Position numbers and translations under genes: made by a program. Below are positions 28,099-45,386 of a DNA stretch of 64,000 nucleotides, piece after piece. The notes beneath the pieces are model-generated. The model was not told the origin of the DNA. It saw only the letters and a program-made list of their open reading frames with translations, and ran no database searches. Each line of letters opens with the position of its first letter. Position 1 is the first letter of the stretch. This DNA comes from Candidatus Dormiibacterota bacterium (lineage in GTDB: Bacteria > Chloroflexota > Dormibacteria > Aeolococcales > Aeolococcaceae): positions 352,001 to 416,000 of the forward strand of contig CAVPXI010000014.1 in assembly GCA_963709585.1 (NCBI GenBank). The letters run 5' to 3'.

Positions 28099-35884
<7,786 letters not shown>

Positions 35885-35888
<4 letters not shown>

Positions 35889-36760
35889 GCGTGCGCCCCG
35901 GTCGCGGGCGCCGCGCGCCCGGCCGACGCACGATATGCATCGGGGCGCCGATCGGTGTGCAGATGGTTGCGCGGCGTACGACGCCGCGCCTGCTCGACGG
36001 AGTCGAGGTCGACGTCGGCGATGAGCAATTCCTCCTGATCCTTGCTCGCCGGGCCGGACACCGGCCAGCCATCGGCGCCGACGATGATCGACGCGCCGAT
36101 GAATGTCACGCCGCGTTCAACTCCCACCCGATCCGCACAGGCCATGACAACCCCGTTCTGCGCCGCCGTGGCCATCGCCACGTAGTCACCCTGGCAGTAG
36201 CCTCGGTCGTCCCAGACGGTGCGCTTGAACGAGGCCACCCAGTTGGTCGGCACCGCGATGATCTCCGCACCGGCCAGGGCGAGCACTCGGGCGGGCTCGG
36301 GGAACCACAGGTCGAAGCAGATGATCATGCCGACCCGCCCGAACGGGAGGTCGACGATCGGCAAGTCGTCGCCGGGCTCGAACCACGACCGCTCGTCGTA
36401 ATACAGGTGCAGCTTGCGATAGGTGGCCAGACGTCCCGACGCACCGATCAGCACCGCGCTGTTGTGCCTGCAGTCGCCGTCCCGCTCGCTGATGCCGGCC
36501 ACGATGTGACACCCATGCATGGCGCACACCTCGCGCAGCACCCGGACGGTCGGTCCGTCATCGGGATCCTCGGCGGAACGCTGCGCCTCGGCCTCGTCGC
36601 CGAAAACGTACCCGCTCGAAGCCAGCTCTGGAAGCACGATCAGCTGCGCCCCCTGGCTGGCCGCCGACGTCGCCCAGAGCACCGCCTGTGACCGGTTCTG
36701 CTCGAGCTCCCCGACGTGCGGCTCGTACTGGGCGACAGCGATCCGTACCGGCCGGCTCAT
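35885..36760 (-). CDS. Nitrilase/carbon-nitrogen hydrolase family amidase
   Basis: LPEL..SGY, YRKLHL, ICFDLWFPE (E-K-C triad). Confidence 0.92.
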
Positions 36761-36764
36761 ACCC

Positions 36765-37901
36765 TCACGGTAGCGCAGCAGGCGTGGCCGCAGGATGGCG
36801 CGGGATACCCTCGGAGATGCCGCAGAGGATCTCGTGCGGCAACGTGCCGACGAGCTCGCCCACCTCGTCCGCGCCGATGCGAATCCCGGCGTGTGACCCG
36901 ATGAACATCGCGCTGTCTCCAACCACTACACCGTCCACGTCAGACACGTCCACGCCGACCTGATCCATGCTCACGATCCCGACAATTGGGCACCGCCCGC
37001 CGCGAATCCCCAGGTGTCCGCGGTTGGAGAGCGCCCGCGGCAGACCCTGCCCGTATCCGAGCGTGGCGGTGGCGATCCGGCGCGTGGTTTCGGCTCGCCA
37101 CGTCCGTCCGTAACCGACGCTCTCGCCGCGGGCGACGGTCCGCAGCTGTGCGACGCGGCAGAACACATTCATCGCCGGCCGGAGCGACGCCGGACCGGGC
37201 ACCGGTGGGTAACCGTACAACGCGATGCCGGCGCGCACCAGGTCGTGGTGCATCGCGGGATGCGCCAGGATGGCGGCGCTGCCCGACGTGTGCAGCAGTG
37301 CATCCGGCGCGACCGGGCGGAGCGCCTGGACGGCCTCGAGGAAACGGCCGTGCTGGGTGATCGTGAAAGCGGGATCCTCGCCCGCATCCGCGAAGTGGGT
37401 GAACACGCCGGCGACCTCGACGCGGTCCCAGGCCTCGCGCACCGCTGCGATCAGCGTGTCGACGGTCTCGGGAAGCGCGCCGAGCCGGTGCAGGCCGGTG
37501 TCGATCTTGAGGTGGACGCGAGCTCTGTGCCCCTGCGCGGACGCCGCCACCGCCACCGCACGGATTCCCTCGGCGTCGAGCACGCTGACGTCCACGCCCC
37601 CGGCGATCAGGTCCCCGAGCGTCGCCGGCGGACTCCACCCCACCACCAGGATCGGCGCCTCGAACCCGTCCGCGCGCAGTCCGAGTGCCTCCTGCGGCGT
37701 GTAGACGCCGAGCCACTCGGCCCCGCCGTCGAGCGCCGCCCTCGCAGCGATCCGGATGCCGTGCCCGTAGCCGTTCGACTTGACCATGGCCATCACCGTC
37801 GCGGGCCGGACCAGCGCCGCGATCACCTCGGCGTTGCCCGCCAGGGCTGCGACGTCGATCTCAGCCCAGCGGAGGGCGCCGTTCCCTCGCGCCGTGCTCA
37901 C
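36765..37901 (-). CDS. alr: Alanine racemase
   Basis: MVKSNGYGHG, HLKIDTGLHRLG, THFA.A, VRAGIALYG, VGYG, G.VSMDQ. Confidence 0.95.
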   Translation of the reverse strand: MSTARGNGALRWAEIDVAALAGNAEVIAALVRPATVMAMVKSNGYGHGIRIAARAALDGGAEWLGVYTPQEALGLRADGFEAPILVVGWSPPATLGDLIAGGVDVSVLDAEGIRAVAVAASAQGHRARVHLKIDTGLHRLGALPETVDTLIAAVREAWDRVEVAGVFTHFADAGEDPAFTITQHGRFLEAVQALRPVAPDALLHTSGSAAILAHPAMHHDLVRAGIALYGYPPVPGPASLRPAMNVFCRVAQLRTVARGESVGYGRTWRAETTRRIATATLGYGQGLPRALSNRGHLGIRGGRCPIVGIVSMDQVGVDVSDVDGVVVGDSAMFIGSHAGIRIGADEVGELVGTLPHEILCGISEGIPRHPAATPAALP

Positions 37902-40570
37902 GCCCCGACCGGTACGGGCTCCGGCGCGGGCGCCGCGACCTCCCTCGGCGCGACCCGGCGCACCAGACCGAACGGCGTCTGCTCGTCCGACTGCCCCAGC
38001 GGGTTGTCGGCAACCATGGCCAGAACAGACTGGGGGTCGATACCGACCGCGGCGAAGACCTCGGCGGCCATGTCGTTGGCGTCGATGATCGCAACCGCGA
38101 TCCGGCGTCCGGTGCGCCGGCGCACGTCGGCCGCGATGCTGAGCGCCGCACCCGACGGATCGAGTGGCGATTTGGTCGCCCAGGTGTCGTAGGGAGGGAT
38201 GTTGAGCGACGAGGGTCCATCGATGGCGTTGACCCCGTGGCCTGCCACGCGATAGAAGACGCCGCGCATTCCCAGCGGCTTGGTGGCGGCGGCGGCAACC
38301 GCGGCGAGGAGAATCCGCGACGCACCCGCCTCGTCGATGGCCAGTTGCATGGTGGTGGGATGGGCGAGGCCGACCCCGGTGGGCTCGTGGCTCACGTACC
38401 GGGACAGCACGCGGGCCGTCCGGGAGACGGCGATCTCGCCGATCGGGTAAGAACGTCCCTGGCTGATCGCCAGAGCCTTCTCGCTCACCAGCAGGATGTC
38501 TCCGTCCTCGACGTCGATGCCGTCGCCGCGCAGCCGTTCGAGGCTGCCGGCAATCGCCTCGAGGAGATCATCGCCGGGTTTGATCAGCGTCGACCGCAGC
38601 GGGAAGCGCGCCCAGATCCGGCCCCTGTCCTCAAGAAAGAGATGACGCCCCCAATTGAGCCGCGCTCCGTCGAGCAGGGCCTCGCCTCCGGCCAGCTTGC
38701 TCGCGGTCGCGCGATCTCCACGGCGAACGAAGCCGCCCTGGTAGCTGTTCTTGTCGAGCGCTCGCGTCTTGCCGTCGATGTAGACACGGAGCCACACCTC
38801 GGCGTTGACGGCGCGCCAGAAGAACATCAACTCCTCGACCTCGCCGGCGCACGCTCGCCGGAAGTTCTCGGCCACCGCGGCGGCCTTCCAGTACGGTCGC
38901 GCGCGGAACGACGGCGAGCGCATCAGGCTCTGGAGCACCGCGCGCTGGCGGCGGTACCAGCGGAATTCGGGCGTGGTGAAGCCGATCTTCTTGCGGCGTG
39001 CCTCCACCAAAGGGGGGAGGACGCCGTGGAGGGAGCGGCGGACGATGGCCCGCGTCCATCCGTTGTGGATGATCGCGCGCCGGGGCAGCGTGAGGATGTA
39101 ATCCACGAGCTCCTGGTCGAGGAAGGGCAATCGTGCCTCGAGCGAATGCGCCATGGAGGCCCGATCCTCATAACGCAGCAGCGGCGGCAGGCTGTAGGTG
39201 CGGAAGTCCTGGAGCAGGCGGCGCTTGAGATCGTCGGCCACGCGGTCGTCGTCGGGCGGCTTGCGTCCACGCGTGAACGATGGCGACAGCATCCCCGCGA
39301 CATCGACGCGTTGACCGCGCTCACGCAGGCGGCGGCGGACCAGCGGGCTGACGATGTCGCGGAGCAGCCACGCCTCACGAGCGAATTCGCCATAGCGGCG
39401 CTCGCGCAGCAGCTGGCGGAGCAGCACGTATGGATAGTGGTCGTACCCGGCCAGCAACTCGTCGCCCGCCTGGCCGTCGAGCGTGACCGTGACCTGGCGC
39501 CTCGCCAGCCGCATCACCATCCACATGGCGAAGGGTGCCGACGACACCATCGGCTCCTCCATGTGCCAGACCCACGCTTCGAGCTCGCGGATGAAGTCCT
39601 GGTCGGTGGGTTGCACCGCGCTGTTGTCCGCACCGGTCGCCTCGAGGACGCTGTCGATGTAGGTGCTCTCGTCGATGCGGTCGCCTGGGAACACCGCGGA
39701 GAACGTCTTGAGGCGGTCACCGAGCGACTCGGTGTCGCGAACGTGATCGCGCAACTGCTGGGCCATCACCGTGCAGATCGACGACGAATCGAGGCCGCCA
39801 CTCAGGCAGATGCCGACAGGGACGTCAGCGACGAGACGGCGCTGCACTGCGCGTTCGAACACGGCGCGAAACGCCTCGGGGCTCGCGTCGCCATCCTCGG
39901 ACAGCCGCGGAGTCCAGTACACGGTCTCCGAGATGGTGCCTCCTTCGACGACTGCGAACGCTGCCGCGGGCACCTGGCGTATCCCGCGGAAGAACGTGCC
40001 GTCGTTGTGGTCGAAGAGACCGAAGCGAAGGTACTCGTACATCTGCTGCTCGTCGACCTCGCGCGGGAAGGTGTCGTCCTGCAGGATCGCCTTGATCTCG
40101 GAGGCGAACACGACCCGGCCACGGTGGCGCGCGTAGAAGAGCGGCTTGATGCCAAAGTGGTCGCGCGCAAGCACCAGCCTGGCGGTCGGGGCACGCTCAT
40201 CGAGAATCGCGAGCCCCCACATGCCGTTGAAACGGCGGAAGCAGTCGTTGCCCCACTGCGCGTAGGCATGCAACACGACCTCGGTGTCGCAGGTCGTGTT
40301 GAACGTGTGCTCCAGCGCCTCGAGCTCCGCGCGCAGCTCGCGAAAGTTGTAGACCTCACCGTTGTAGACCATCTGCAGCCGGCCCCCGTCCATCGACACC
40401 GGCTGGCTGCCGTGCTCGAGGTCGATGATGCTGAGGCGGCGGAATCCCAGCGATGCGACGGCGTCCTCGAAGTACCCGTCATCGTCCGGACCGCGATGCC
40501 GGAGCGACTCGGTCATCGCCTCGAGCAACGCCCGGTCGGGTGGCCCCCAGAAGCCCGCTATCCCGCACAC
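37898..40570 (-). CDS. asnB: AsnB-like glutamine-dependent amidotransferase fused to a C-terminal CofE-like (F420-0:gamma-glutamyl ligase family) domain
   Basis: N-terminal CGIAG, HRGPD, NGEVYN, LSGGLDSS, GQAGDELLAGY, EARLPFLD; the last ~230 aa contain P.RS.LI..GDD, DILLVSEKALAISQGR, IDG, IIDAND, DNPLGQ.DEQTP. Confidence 0.9.
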   Translation of the reverse strand: MCGIAGFWGPPDRALLEAMTESLRHRGPDDDGYFEDAVASLGFRRLSIIDLEHGSQPVSMDGGRLQMVYNGEVYNFRELRAELEALEHTFNTTCDTEVVLHAYAQWGNDCFRRFNGMWGLAILDERAPTARLVLARDHFGIKPLFYARHRGRVVFASEIKAILQDDTFPREVDEQQMYEYLRFGLFDHNDGTFFRGIRQVPAAAFAVVEGGTISETVYWTPRLSEDGDASPEAFRAVFERAVQRRLVADVPVGICLSGGLDSSSICTVMAQQLRDHVRDTESLGDRLKTFSAVFPGDRIDESTYIDSVLEATGADNSAVQPTDQDFIRELEAWVWHMEEPMVSSAPFAMWMVMRLARRQVTVTLDGQAGDELLAGYDHYPYVLLRQLLRERRYGEFAREAWLLRDIVSPLVRRRLRERGQRVDVAGMLSPSFTRGRKPPDDDRVADDLKRRLLQDFRTYSLPPLLRYEDRASMAHSLEARLPFLDQELVDYILTLPRRAIIHNGWTRAIVRRSLHGVLPPLVEARRKKIGFTTPEFRWYRRQRAVLQSLMRSPSFRARPYWKAAAVAENFRRACAGEVEELMFFWRAVNAEVWLRVYIDGKTRALDKNSYQGGFVRRGDRATASKLAGGEALLDGARLNWGRHLFLEDRGRIWARFPLRSTLIKPGDDLLEAIAGSLERLRGDGIDVEDGDILLVSEKALAISQGRSYPIGEIAVSRTARVLSRYVSHEPTGVGLAHPTTMQLAIDEAGASRILLAAVAAAATKPLGMRGVFYRVAGHGVNAIDGPSSLNIPPYDTWATKSPLDPSGAALSIAADVRRRTGRRIAVAIIDANDMAAEVFAAVGIDPQSVLAMVADNPLGQSDEQTPFGLVRRVAPREVAAPAPEPVPVGA

Positions 40571-43650: not shown

Positions 43651-43669
43651 TTAGCTTAGCCTAACCTAA
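43651..43669. promoter_or_regulatory. DtxR/IdeR operator box
   Basis: TTAGCTTAGCCTAACCTAA, one mismatch to the palindromic consensus TTAGGTTAGSCTAACCTAA, about 45 nt upstream of FTR1. Confidence 0.88.
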
Positions 43670-44358
43670 CGGTCCGCGGGTGCCTCGACCCAGATCGCCC
43701 GGGCGGCCGCCGAGTCGACGGCCACGTGCACGTCTGCGGCGGTGAGCTCCCACCCGCCCGGCGAGTGAGCGACGATCCCGACTTCGATCCCCGGGACGAT
43801 TCCCCGCTCATCGAGGAGGTGGAGCAGCTGCGGCGCCTCGTGCTCGGCGACTTCCGAGATCCGCGCGACCCGGGCTCGATCGCCGTCCTCGAGCTCCACG
43901 AGCCGCACCAGCCGTCCGCCCTCCGGGGGCGTCCGTCCCGGGATCACATTCCCGTGCGGACACGTGGTCGGCCTGCCGAGCAACTCGTCGATCCGGTCGA
44001 GAACCGTCGCCGACATGCCGTGGGTCAGCGACTGCGCCTCGAGGTCGGCGGTGGCCCAGTCGAACCCGAGGACGTCGGTGAGCCACCGCTCCACGATGCG
44101 ATGGCGGCGTACGATCGTCGCGGCGGCCGCGGCACCGCCATCGGTGAGCTCGACCGACCGATCGCCCGCGATCCGGATCAGCCCATCACGCGCGAGGCGC
44201 TGGAGCGAGACGGTGACCGTCGGCGCGCTGACGCCGAGCCACTCGGCGAGCCGGCCGGGACGTGGTACCTCGCCCTCGTGCTCGATGTAATAGATCGCCT
44301 CGAGATAGCGCTCGGTGGCTTCCGAGCGCTGCAGGATCGGGTCGCCGGCGGCGCTCAT
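43666..44358 (-). CDS. DtxR/IdeR family metal-dependent regulator with FeoA/SH3 domain
   Basis: ERYLEAIY, LGVSAPTV, RRHRIVERWL, CPHGNVIPG, C-terminal FeoA-like domain. Confidence 0.93.
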   Translation of the reverse strand: MSAAGDPILQRSEATERYLEAIYYIEHEGEVPRPGRLAEWLGVSAPTVTVSLQRLARDGLIRIAGDRSVELTDGGAAAAATIVRRHRIVERWLTDVLGFDWATADLEAQSLTHGMSATVLDRIDELLGRPTTCPHGNVIPGRTPPEGGRLVRLVELEDGDRARVARISEVAEHEAPQLLHLLDERGIVPGIEVGIVAHSPGGWELTAADVHVAVDSAAARAIWVEAPADR

Positions 44359-44369
44359 GCGGATGGAAT

Positions 44370-45386
44370 CTACGCGCACTCCGCCAGCGACGGATCCACG
44401 TCGAACCCCGGAGCATCCGGACCGTGGAGCCGGAGCCGCTGCCACCCGGCTGCCGCGATCATCGCGGCGTTGTCGGTGCAGAGGTCGAAGGGCGGCACCA
44501 CGACACGCAGCCTGCTGAATCGCGCTCCAACCGCGTCGCGCAGCGCCTGGTTGGCCGCCACCCCGCCGACCACGGCCACGGTGCTCGCCCCGGTGCGATC
44601 CGCCGCGGCTGCCAGGCCCGACACCAGCTGATCCACCGCGGCCGACTGAAAGCTCGCCGCGAGGTCGGCAACCACCTGCGGATCGGCGGGGACGCCTGAA
44701 TCGGTGAGCGATCCGGATCCGAGGTCACGCACCATGTAGCGGACGGCGGTCTTTAAGCCGCTGAACGAGAATGCCCCGTCGAGCCGGGTGCGGGGCAGCG
44801 GGAACCGGCGCGCATCGCCCGAGCGAGCGACCCGCTGGATCGCGGGGCCGCCCGGATACTCCAGGCCGAGCAGGCGGGCAACCTTGTCGAAGGCCTCGCC
44901 GGCGGCGTCATCGCGGGTCGCGGCAAGCCGCTCGGCGACGCCGTGCTCACGGAGTACGACGCACTCGGTGTGCCCGCCGCTGACCAGCAACGCGAGGTAT
45001 GGGGGCTCGAGCTCGGGGTCGGCGAGCCACGCGCTGTACACATGCCCGGCGAGATGCGAGACCCCGACGATCGGCACGCCGCGGGCGATGGCGGCGCTCG
45101 ACGCGTACATCGTGCCGACGATCAGGCATCCTGCCAGCCCCGGACCGCGAGTGACCGCGATGGCGTCGACGGCGTCCCAGCCGCCGGGTATGGGCGCGAG
45201 TGCGGCGTCGACGACGGTCGCGAGACCCTCGAGATGGGCACGCGCGGCGAGCTCGGGAACGACGCCACCGTGGACGGCATGCAGGGCAATCTGCGACGAC
45301 ACCACCGAGGAACGCACCTCGCGTCCGTCGGACAGCACCGCCGCCGCGGTCTCGTCGCAGGAGGTCTCGATCGCGAGGACGTTCAG
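44370..45386 (-). CDS. tsaD: tRNA threonylcarbamoyltransferase TsaD; probable CTG start
   Basis: LAIETSCDET, GGVVPELAARAH, H..GH, LVSGGHT, DDAAGEAFDK, FSFSGLKT, TDNAAMIA. Confidence 0.95.
   Translation of the reverse strand: MNVLAIETSCDETAAAVLSDGREVRSSVVSSQIALHAVHGGVVPELAARAHLEGLATVVDAALAPIPGGWDAVDAIAVTRGPGLAGCLIVGTMYASSAAIARGVPIVGVSHLAGHVYSAWLADPELEPPYLALLVSGGHTECVVLREHGVAERLAATRDDAAGEAFDKVARLLGLEYPGGPAIQRVARSGDARRFPLPRTRLDGAFSFSGLKTAVRYMVRDLGSGSLTDSGVPADPQVVADLAASFQSAAVDQLVSGLAAAADRTGASTVAVVGGVAANQALRDAVGARFSRLRVVVPPFDLCTDNAAMIAAAGWQRLRLHGPDAPGFDVDPSLAECA

Follow-up and report, generated by a model that had tools for sequence, protein, structure and literature searches.

The gene at 37898..40570 on the minus strand of a 64,000-nucleotide stretch of a Candidatus Dormiibacterota genome (GenBank assembly GCA_963709585.1, contig CAVPXI010000014.1, positions 352,001 to 416,000; hereafter the window, to which all coordinates refer) encodes an 890-amino acid (aa) protein, P0001, in which an AsnB-type amidotransferase is followed by a divergent ligase domain predicted to have the fold of the F420 ligase CofE. 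Across five genome samples, this ligase domain and MurT are almost never found in the same genome. According to the published account, MurT/GatD amidate the alpha-carboxyl of D-glutamate (D-Glu) at position 2 of the peptidoglycan stem peptide (PMC3266927); masking of this carboxyl is described as needed for cross-linking in the organisms studied, and MurT/GatD as antibiotic targets (PMC3266927, PMC10484409). The near-perfect exclusion between the ligase domain and MurT, a new finding of the present analysis, points to this same carboxyl, at stem position 2, as the site at which the fusion acts. We consider it moderately probable that the ligase domain of the fusion joins glycine (Gly) or D-alanine (D-Ala) to this alpha-carboxyl in a precursor of peptidoglycan, the added residue being amidated by the AsnB half. 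It is quite possible, short of probable, that the CofE-like family in general is the enzyme attaching free glycine or D-alanine to this carboxyl, and thus a third widespread masking route besides MurT/GatD.

Ligase domain and MurT almost completely exclude each other in samples at several taxonomic depths. Genome samples were searched with a profile of the C-terminal domain (alignment A2) and with MurT_C (PF08353). In the family of Sinomonas humi (Micrococcaceae, 151 genomes) we found 42 carriers of the ligase domain and 52 genomes with MurT, none with both, MurT being present in 52 of the 109 non-carriers. The same holds for the window's own phylum (151 genomes; 11 carriers; 93 with MurT, all among the 140 non-carriers; no overlap), and in its own class (101 genomes) 20 carriers and 73 MurT genomes share a single member, G820, with MurT in 72 of 81 non-carriers. 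Among 201 Patescibacteria there are 15 carriers and 56 genomes with MurT (56 of 186 non-carriers), and in the order of Sinomonas (251 genomes) 23 and 79 (79 of 228 non-carriers), again with zero overlap in both. MurT is thus found in 30-89% of non-carriers across the five samples, some of which overlap, the family and order samples sharing some genomes and the phylum and class samples likewise. For four of the samples, the hypergeometric probabilities of zero overlap are 4e-10, 1e-5, 6e-3 and 1e-4, values that overstate the case because related genomes are not independent. More telling is that the switch between ligase and MurT recurs inside individual families (f1, f3, f7, f12 and f34); in f7, it occurs within a single genus (g48), where G205 holds the ligase and G289 holds MurT. 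Carriers in the phylum sample are matches at E <= 2.2e-37. The profile had 19 matches there, of which the 8 weak ones (E 4e-5 to 1e-3, in frames 252-312 aa long) were set aside as canonical CofE; five of these 8 genomes hold MurT, and keeping them would bring the overlap with MurT to 5 of 19 matching genomes. The counts include nine unpublished genomes (G134, G191, G298, G457, G753, G769, G803, G813 and G824), and the overlaps are unchanged when these are left out.

No MurT_C match was found in the genome of the window, which has 5 Mur_ligase_M genes, or in any of five named carriers, and 9 of the 101 genomes of the class sample have neither system. The MurT_C matches themselves (in G742, G754, G820, G199, G259 and others) are of two kinds, one covering profile positions 1-110 at about 100-130 bits and the other positions 2-108 at about 77-93 bits, and both kinds co-occur in some genomes. 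The MurT_C protein of G820 belongs to the latter kind, possibly a paralogue with a different function.

The open reading frame (ORF) list, the translation and the Pfam and NCBIfam domain assignments agree on one uninterrupted 890-aa frame with a complete AsnB and a CofE-like domain, as the earlier note on this window, made from the sequence alone, had described. Translation starts with GTG-TGC, predicting a mature N-terminal Cys (the sequence begins (M)CGIAG) as in N-terminal nucleophile (Ntn) amidotransferases. The Ntn (class II) glutaminase domain, with Cys2 as its putative nucleophile, spans residues 1-190 (40001..40570, minus strand) and is matched by GATase_7 (residues 44-164, 150.8 bits) and GATase_6 (128.8 bits). 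It is followed by the adenylating Asn_synthase domain at residues 234-595 (38786..39871, minus strand; PF00733, 253.4 bits, profile positions 2-354 of 354), which contains the PP-loop SGGLDSS at residues 257-263 (39782-39802, minus strand). The N-terminal 530 residues also score 440.8 bits against the asparagine-synthase model TIGR01536 (cut-off 267.1). A linker at residues 596-640 (38651..38785, minus strand), which varies in length among lineages and falls in gapped, poorly conserved alignment columns (601-690), leads to the divergent CofE-fold ligase domain at residues 641-875 (37946..38650, minus strand). This domain is assigned from the F420_ligase family PF01996 (residues 658-837, 56.6 bits against a cut-off of 25, profile positions 2-155 of 218), a structural model of the domain and a Foldseek search, and the motifs GDD, SEK..AISQGR, IDG, DAND and NPLGQ..EQTP that the note had listed are all present in the translation. 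Both halves of the protein look catalytically intact. An AlphaFold model of the full-length fusion has a mean predicted local distance difference test score (pLDDT) of 80.7 and a predicted template modelling score (pTM) of 0.86, and such a confident model fits a single integrated enzyme.

To place the C-terminal domain, we modelled it alone from an 18-row alignment (pLDDT 82.3, pTM 0.78). The comparison with CofE that the note had proposed bears out the relationship: besides the PF01996 match, Foldseek against the Protein Data Bank (PDB) returned only CofE structures (2phn, 2g9i and 7uld; E 1.4e-11 to 5.9e-10, template modelling score 0.55-0.59, about 20% identity), the next match having an E-value of 0.43. 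A sequence search of the PDB gave only marginal CofE matches (E about 1e-4). In the phmmer alignment, the ..IITDTNG.. of 2phn lies opposite ..AIIDANDM.. in the fusion, with the Asp and Asn kept and the Thr replaced by Ala, and the C-terminal half does not align; the aligned residues would belong to the metal and nucleotide sites of CofE. The domain thus resembles CofE and the N-terminal domain of FbiB (PF01996; 2PHN, 2G9I, 7ULD) in its fold, its N-terminal motifs and the aligned Asp of the putative metal-site segment, and is presumably likewise a nucleoside triphosphate (NTP)-dependent amide-bond ligase. It differs in having only about 20% identity, in its own invariant motifs (QGRS, AIDGP, DANDxG and DNPxGQ..TP), in being fused or adjacent to AsnB, and in occurring mostly in genomes without CofD. 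The CofE equivalog models fail on it (TIGR01916, 24.5 against 180.65 bits; NF009809, 18.7 against 274). A separate canonical cofE (235 bits) is encoded elsewhere in the window's genome, on contig 7 with cofD (262.9 bits) as its neighbour, and hhalign of the fused-domain profile against this CofE gives 78.9% probability and 25% identity. These comparisons make the C-terminal domain a distant CofE paralogue rather than an orthologue.

The presence of cofE and cofD means that the note's statement that F420 genes are absent is right for the window and wrong for the genome. Co-occurrence with such genes, which the note had regarded as evidence against its reading, is formally seen in the window's own genome; we do not take it to refute a cell-wall role because CofD exceeds its cut-off in only one of five other carrier genomes tested, falling below it in Sinomonas humi, a Micrococcus-like genome and two Patescibacteria. 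For the same reason, and because cofE is a separate gene, a role of the fusion in F420 metabolism is unlikely. The FO-synthase model cofH (TIGR03551) has no match in the window's 88.8%-complete genome, although cofE and cofD are present.

The fusion is widespread. With the C-terminal 251 residues as query and the search restricted to proteins of 489-1558 aa, 358 matching proteins were found; among the 120 listed, nearly all are 850-930 aa long with both sets of Pfam domains, down to 48% identity, and the named ones are mostly Candidatus Dormibacterota metagenome-assembled genomes (MAGs). Whole-length matches in species-representative genomes extend to Dormibacteria, Thermoleophilia, MAGs of Acidimicrobiales and other Actinomycetes, a Stackebrandtia MAG, the cultured Tersicoccus mangrovi, Sinomonas humi and S. 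notoginsengisoli, and Patescibacteria, including a Saccharibacteria MAG. Using the Sinomonas protein as query added Renibacterium salmoninarum, Tersicoccus phoenicis, Psychromicrobium, Acaricomes and Arthrobacter castelli, as well as Intrasporangium calvum, I. oryzae, Terrabacter tumescens, Knoellia, Humibacillus and others. Given the 358 matches and the whole-protein matches in named genomes of several phyla, the fusion is real and not an assembly artefact, and its presence in relatives, on which the note's reading depended, is established.

Residue conservation across these proteins places both halves under purifying selection across phyla. In all eight aligned fusions, drawn from four phyla (members of Dormibacteria, Micrococcaceae, Intrasporangiaceae, Saccharibacteria and other Patescibacteria), C2-G3 and the PP-loop LSGGLDS are invariant; Cys2 is nearly invariant in the larger alignment A1, where one row is truncated, and L256-S262 of the PP-loop do not vary in the fusion alignments. 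In the C-terminal domain, the same eight fusions all have SEK, QGRS, IDG, DxND and DNPxGQ..TP, and the invariant residues are S696 and E697, Q704, G705 and R706, I783, D784 and G785, D830 and N832, D855, N856, P857, G859 and Q860, and T865 and P866. These are kept not only in fused proteins but also in the split, stand-alone and Micrococcus forms described below.

The two halves are not always joined. In two Chloroflexota genomes (loci L100 and L099), the halves are encoded by overlapping genes, one for AsnB (609 and 713 aa) and one for the CofE-like domain (235 and 233 aa), an arrangement that speaks for a functional link between the two. Searching 1.84 billion representatives with a profile gave 290 clusters at E <= 1e-30, which include fused proteins of about 850-950 aa and stand-alone proteins of about 225-300 aa. 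Individual stand-alone forms measure 226-292 aa; those of the Chloroflexota family f12 have 258-292 aa, and 13 of the 15 Patescibacteria carriers have the stand-alone form. In all five genomes with an AsnB-less ligase that were scanned genome-wide (four of f12 and the Micrococcus-like G084, whose ligase-domain gene lies at L108:7764-9320), no Asn_synthase was found. In the Micrococcus luteus proteins P0412, P0508 (509 aa) and P0515, the ligase domain is fully conserved, with 50-55% identity to its Sinomonas counterpart, and their alignment to the Sinomonas fusion is confined to residues 572-896 of the latter; Pfam detects neither GATase nor Asn_synthase in them, the glutaminase domain and the PP-loop core being gone. 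Given the stand-alone forms in genomes without Asn_synthase and the loss of the AsnB half in Micrococcus, the ligase domain can apparently act alone, with the AsnB half as an optional second step. Two further observations were made around the stand-alone forms. One protein of Candidatus Saccharimonadales, P0246 (402 aa), has an AhpC/TSA-redoxin domain in front of its CofE-like domain, where the fusion has AsnB. Beside stand-alone genes of family f12, regions of 2-3.7 kb (L095 2446-6177 and L098 3783-5938) are almost without long ORFs.

Cell-wall chemistry also bears on what the proteins might do. A published chemotaxonomic statement places glycine on the D-Glu alpha-carboxyl of Intrasporangium calvum, and the same source gives its wall as containing LL-diaminopimelate (LL-DAP) and triglycine. 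This species carries an intact fusion (P0190, P0199), as do Sinomonas and Renibacterium. For the other groups there is older literature: the 1972 work of Schleifer and Kandler reportedly describes M. luteus with un-amidated glycine on the D-Glu alpha-carboxyl, and this literature reportedly also gives glycine amide for Arthrobacter atrocyaneus (now Sinomonas atrocyanea) and D-alanine amide for Renibacterium salmoninarum. In Micrococcus, the addition of glycine was reportedly described by biochemical work of the 1960s, with free glycine and ATP as the reactants and the lipid stage as the point of addition; the reaction is not known to have been assigned to a gene. If these reports hold, wall chemistry follows gene content, ligase alone going with glycine (Micrococcus) and ligase plus AsnB with an amino-acid amide (Sinomonas, Renibacterium). 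In a full-text literature search that left subscription journals outside its scope, we found no paper on the AsnB-CofE fusion, on a gene for glycine addition to D-Glu, or on a link between CofE-like proteins and peptidoglycan.

Gene context, on the other hand, does not identify the function. The fusion is followed by alr, encoding alanine racemase (36765-37901, minus strand; Ala_racemase_N and _C in Pfam; TIGR00492, 277.7 bits), its stop overlapping the alr start in the sequence GTGA, and then by a nitrilase-superfamily C-N hydrolase (35885..36760, minus strand; PF00795, 178 bits) with a likely ATG at 36760, 4 nucleotides past the alr stop. The junction sequences and the PF00795 match thus confirm the arrangement that the note had reported; no NCBIfam model exceeds its cut-off on the C-N hydrolase, the best being nitrile_Arch at 188.3 against 500. 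Coupling to alr and the C-N hydrolase is seen in four of four close Dormibacteria loci (the window, L007, L008 and L102, the hydrolase again following alr in L102). At about 62% identity (L010 and L011), the order is groES-groEL-fusion-GGDEF/EAL-uvrD, with the GGDEF/EAL gene in the place of alr. We scanned the genes around 17 fused loci that do not belong to the close relatives; alr was not among them, and no partner gene is common to all. In Sinomonas the neighbours are pdxT and an M3 peptidase gene, and in four of six Patescibacteria loci the order is LemA-M48 peptidase-fusion-gatC-gatA-gatB. The alr coupling, which had been offered as evidence for a cell-wall role, is therefore only a weak, lineage-specific hint, given its absence from the 17 other fused loci.

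Starting from the observed domain architecture, conservation, distribution, MurT exclusion and loss of the AsnB half in Micrococcus, we infer the substrate, site, amino acid, nucleotide and order of steps as follows. The C-terminal CofE-fold domain would be an NTP-dependent ligase that, by analogy with CofE, activates a carboxylate as an acyl phosphate. This carboxylate would be the D-Glu alpha-carboxyl at position 2 of lipid II or of a nucleotide precursor, to which the domain would join free Gly or D-Ala. The AsnB half would then adenylate the carboxyl of the added residue and amidate it with glutamine-derived ammonia from its own glutaminase domain, giving D-Glu(alpha)-Gly-NH2 or D-Glu(alpha)-D-Ala-NH2; alternatively, the free amino acid may be amidated first and then ligated. 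The carboxylate neutralised would be the one that MurT/GatD amidation neutralises, and a genome would therefore need only one of the two systems. The coupled alr is a speculative hint at D-Ala in the Dormibacteria genome. Fused, split or stand-alone, the CofE-like family would on the wider reading be the alternative to MurT/GatD in Actinobacteria, Dormibacteria/Chloroflexota and Patescibacteria, with AsnB supplying the terminal amide, and might provide the starting point for the D-Glu-alpha-linked bridges found in B-type walls. Of the function proposed in the note, a bifunctional ligase/amidotransferase acting on a cell-wall precursor, the general part is favoured by the data, while the acidic amino acid and the building of an interpeptide bridge are not: the MurT exclusion points to the D-Glu alpha-carboxyl, and the I. 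calvum statement concerns glycine.

Several other explanations deserve comparison with this proposal, foremost those that keep the enzyme in the cell wall. The MurT exclusion in the five samples would fit equally well if the fusion carried out the reaction of MurT/GatD itself, the CofE-like domain activating the D-Glu alpha-carboxyl and AsnB-derived ammonia yielding D-isoglutamine with no amino acid added, and AsnB-type glutaminases do deliver ammonia through a tunnel. We nevertheless judge direct amidation unlikely: the ligase stands alone in genomes without Asn_synthase (0 of 5 have one), Micrococcus lost the AsnB half, glutaminase included, and kept the ligase, I. calvum has glycine and not a plain amide on the D-Glu carboxyl, and the invariant adenylating PP-loop would be superfluous. 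A somewhat less likely account is the note's own, in which an acidic amino acid or amine is added as an interpeptide bridge or side branch and then amidated, as AsnH does on D-aspartate (D-Asp) bridges. It shares the two-step logic of our proposal and draws on the AsnB paralogues that amidate peptidoglycan carboxylates and on the alr coupled in the window. The exclusion, however, is specific to MurT, which acts at position 2; alr is uncoupled in 17 of 17 loci outside close relatives; and carriers differ widely in their bridges, from Lys-type Micrococcaceae to LL-DAP-Gly Intrasporangiaceae, and extend to Patescibacteria and Dormibacteria.

The remaining explanations place the enzyme outside the cell wall. 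A housekeeping asparagine synthetase with the C-terminal domain as an accessory or regulatory appendage would account for the TIGR01536 score (440.8 against 267.1 bits), for the fusion being the only full Asn_synthase in the 88.8%-complete genome and for the adjacent gatCAB in four of six Patescibacteria loci. The genome yielded no asparaginyl-tRNA synthetase (AsnRS; best score 73.3 bits, cut-off 342.6) and has GatB (377.5 bits), so that asparagine can be formed on the tRNA itself and translation probably does not depend on the fusion for it. As the C-terminal domain also keeps its catalytic-looking motifs, occurring even in lineages that have lost or lack the AsnB half, and as the MurT exclusion would go unexplained, we hold this account to be improbable. 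Marginally more improbable is a soluble small-molecule product, such as a dipeptide-amide osmolyte in the manner of the N-acetylglutaminylglutamine amide (NAGGN) pathway. The mostly housekeeping neighbourhoods would suit it, and the N-acetylglutaminylglutamine amidotransferase model TIGR03104 scores 318 bits, a value far under its cut-off of 570.1; the protein also occurs in Patescibacteria whose genomes are tiny (0.5-1.2 Mb), and the MurT exclusion is again unexplained. Modification of cofactor F420, for instance by adding and amidating tail glutamates, is the most remote of these ideas. It could appeal to the PF01996 match, to a fold that matches CofE only and to the cofE and cofD of the genome, and is countered by the TIGR01916 score (24.5 against 180.65 bits), by the modest hhalign result against the genome's own CofE (only 78.9% probability, 25% identity) and by the CofD count (1 of 5 carriers).

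Some observations weigh against the proposed addition of Gly or D-Ala to D-Glu. Of the 218 positions of the CofE profile, the ligase domain is matched to no more than the first 155, and the choice of amino acid, nucleotide and lipid II as substrate is a guess. On the genomic side, apart from the non-independence of related genomes, many genomes hold neither system, and G820 holds the fusion together with a MurT_C protein. Neighbours outside Dormibacteria are not cell-wall genes, and the position of the fusion just upstream of gatCAB in four of six Patescibacteria loci would agree with a function connected to amino acids or tRNA; the fusion passes TIGR01536 as the sole full Asn_synthase, and may thus be able to make asparagine. 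As for the chemistry, of the four chemotaxonomic links only that of I. calvum is firmly documented, those for M. luteus, Sinomonas and Renibacterium depending on what the older literature reportedly states. The statement on I. calvum says glycine and not glycine amide, although the AsnB half of its fusion is intact.

Comparison with known peptidoglycan-modifying enzymes shows where the fusion would stand. LtsA of Corynebacterium, AsnB of B. subtilis and AsnH of Lactococcus/Lactobacillus share its Ntn glutaminase and PP-loop synthetase. These enzymes, of about 630-650 aa and without a ligase domain, amidate a carboxylate of the stem peptide or bridge, on meso-diaminopimelate or D-Asp; the fusion differs from them in its added ligase domain. 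With MurT/GatD it would have in common the carboxylate and the chemistry of carboxyl activation followed by nitrogen from glutamine, and the two distributions are complementary. The systems are not homologous, however: MurT has a Mur-ligase fold and GatD is a class I glutaminase, whereas Pfam finds neither the Mur-ligase central domain nor MurT_C (DUF1727) in P0001, which makes the fusion a functional analogue at most. MurT/GatD also add ammonia only; with the fusion, addition of an amino acid would come before that of ammonia. FemXAB and the ATP-grasp branch ligases likewise add amino acids to the stem peptide, but have unrelated folds and act on position 3, not on the D-Glu alpha-carboxyl; Fem enzymes use aminoacyl-tRNA.

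If the addition of Gly or D-Ala to D-Glu is correct, large parts of the Actinobacteria, Chloroflexota and Patescibacteria would have a second, unrelated masking system. Genes could then be assigned to the Gly, Gly-NH2 and D-Ala-NH2 peptidoglycan variants, which have long been used in taxonomy without a known enzyme. The CofE fold would also gain a second function unrelated to F420, and hundreds of 'asparagine synthase' and 'F420 ligase' annotations would be corrected.

The wider neighbourhood of the fusion in the window reads, on the same strand, thiL, tsaE, tsaB, rimI, tsaD, a DtxR-type regulator gene, groES, groEL, the fusion, alr, the C-N hydrolase gene and uvrD/pcrA. The regulator, between tsaD and groES in an otherwise housekeeping block (43666-44445, minus strand), is a DtxR/IdeR-type metal-dependent repressor with a FeoA domain. 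The UvrD/PcrA helicase (32571-35765, minus strand; 1064 aa) is interrupted at residues 262-581 by an insertion whose Intein_splicing score, 35.1 bits, falls narrowly short of the 35.8 cut-off, and the orthologues of the helicase in L010 (735 aa) and L102 (717 aa) show no intein match. A single 1386-aa ORF (28502-32662, minus strand) has LigA domains (adenylation, OB and Zn finger) followed by UvrC domains; the LigA part is Arg-rich and looks out of frame past about residue 555, the uvrC start seems to lie near residue 723, and the ORF is probably the product of a frameshift in ligA, genuine or an assembly error, and not a true fusion.

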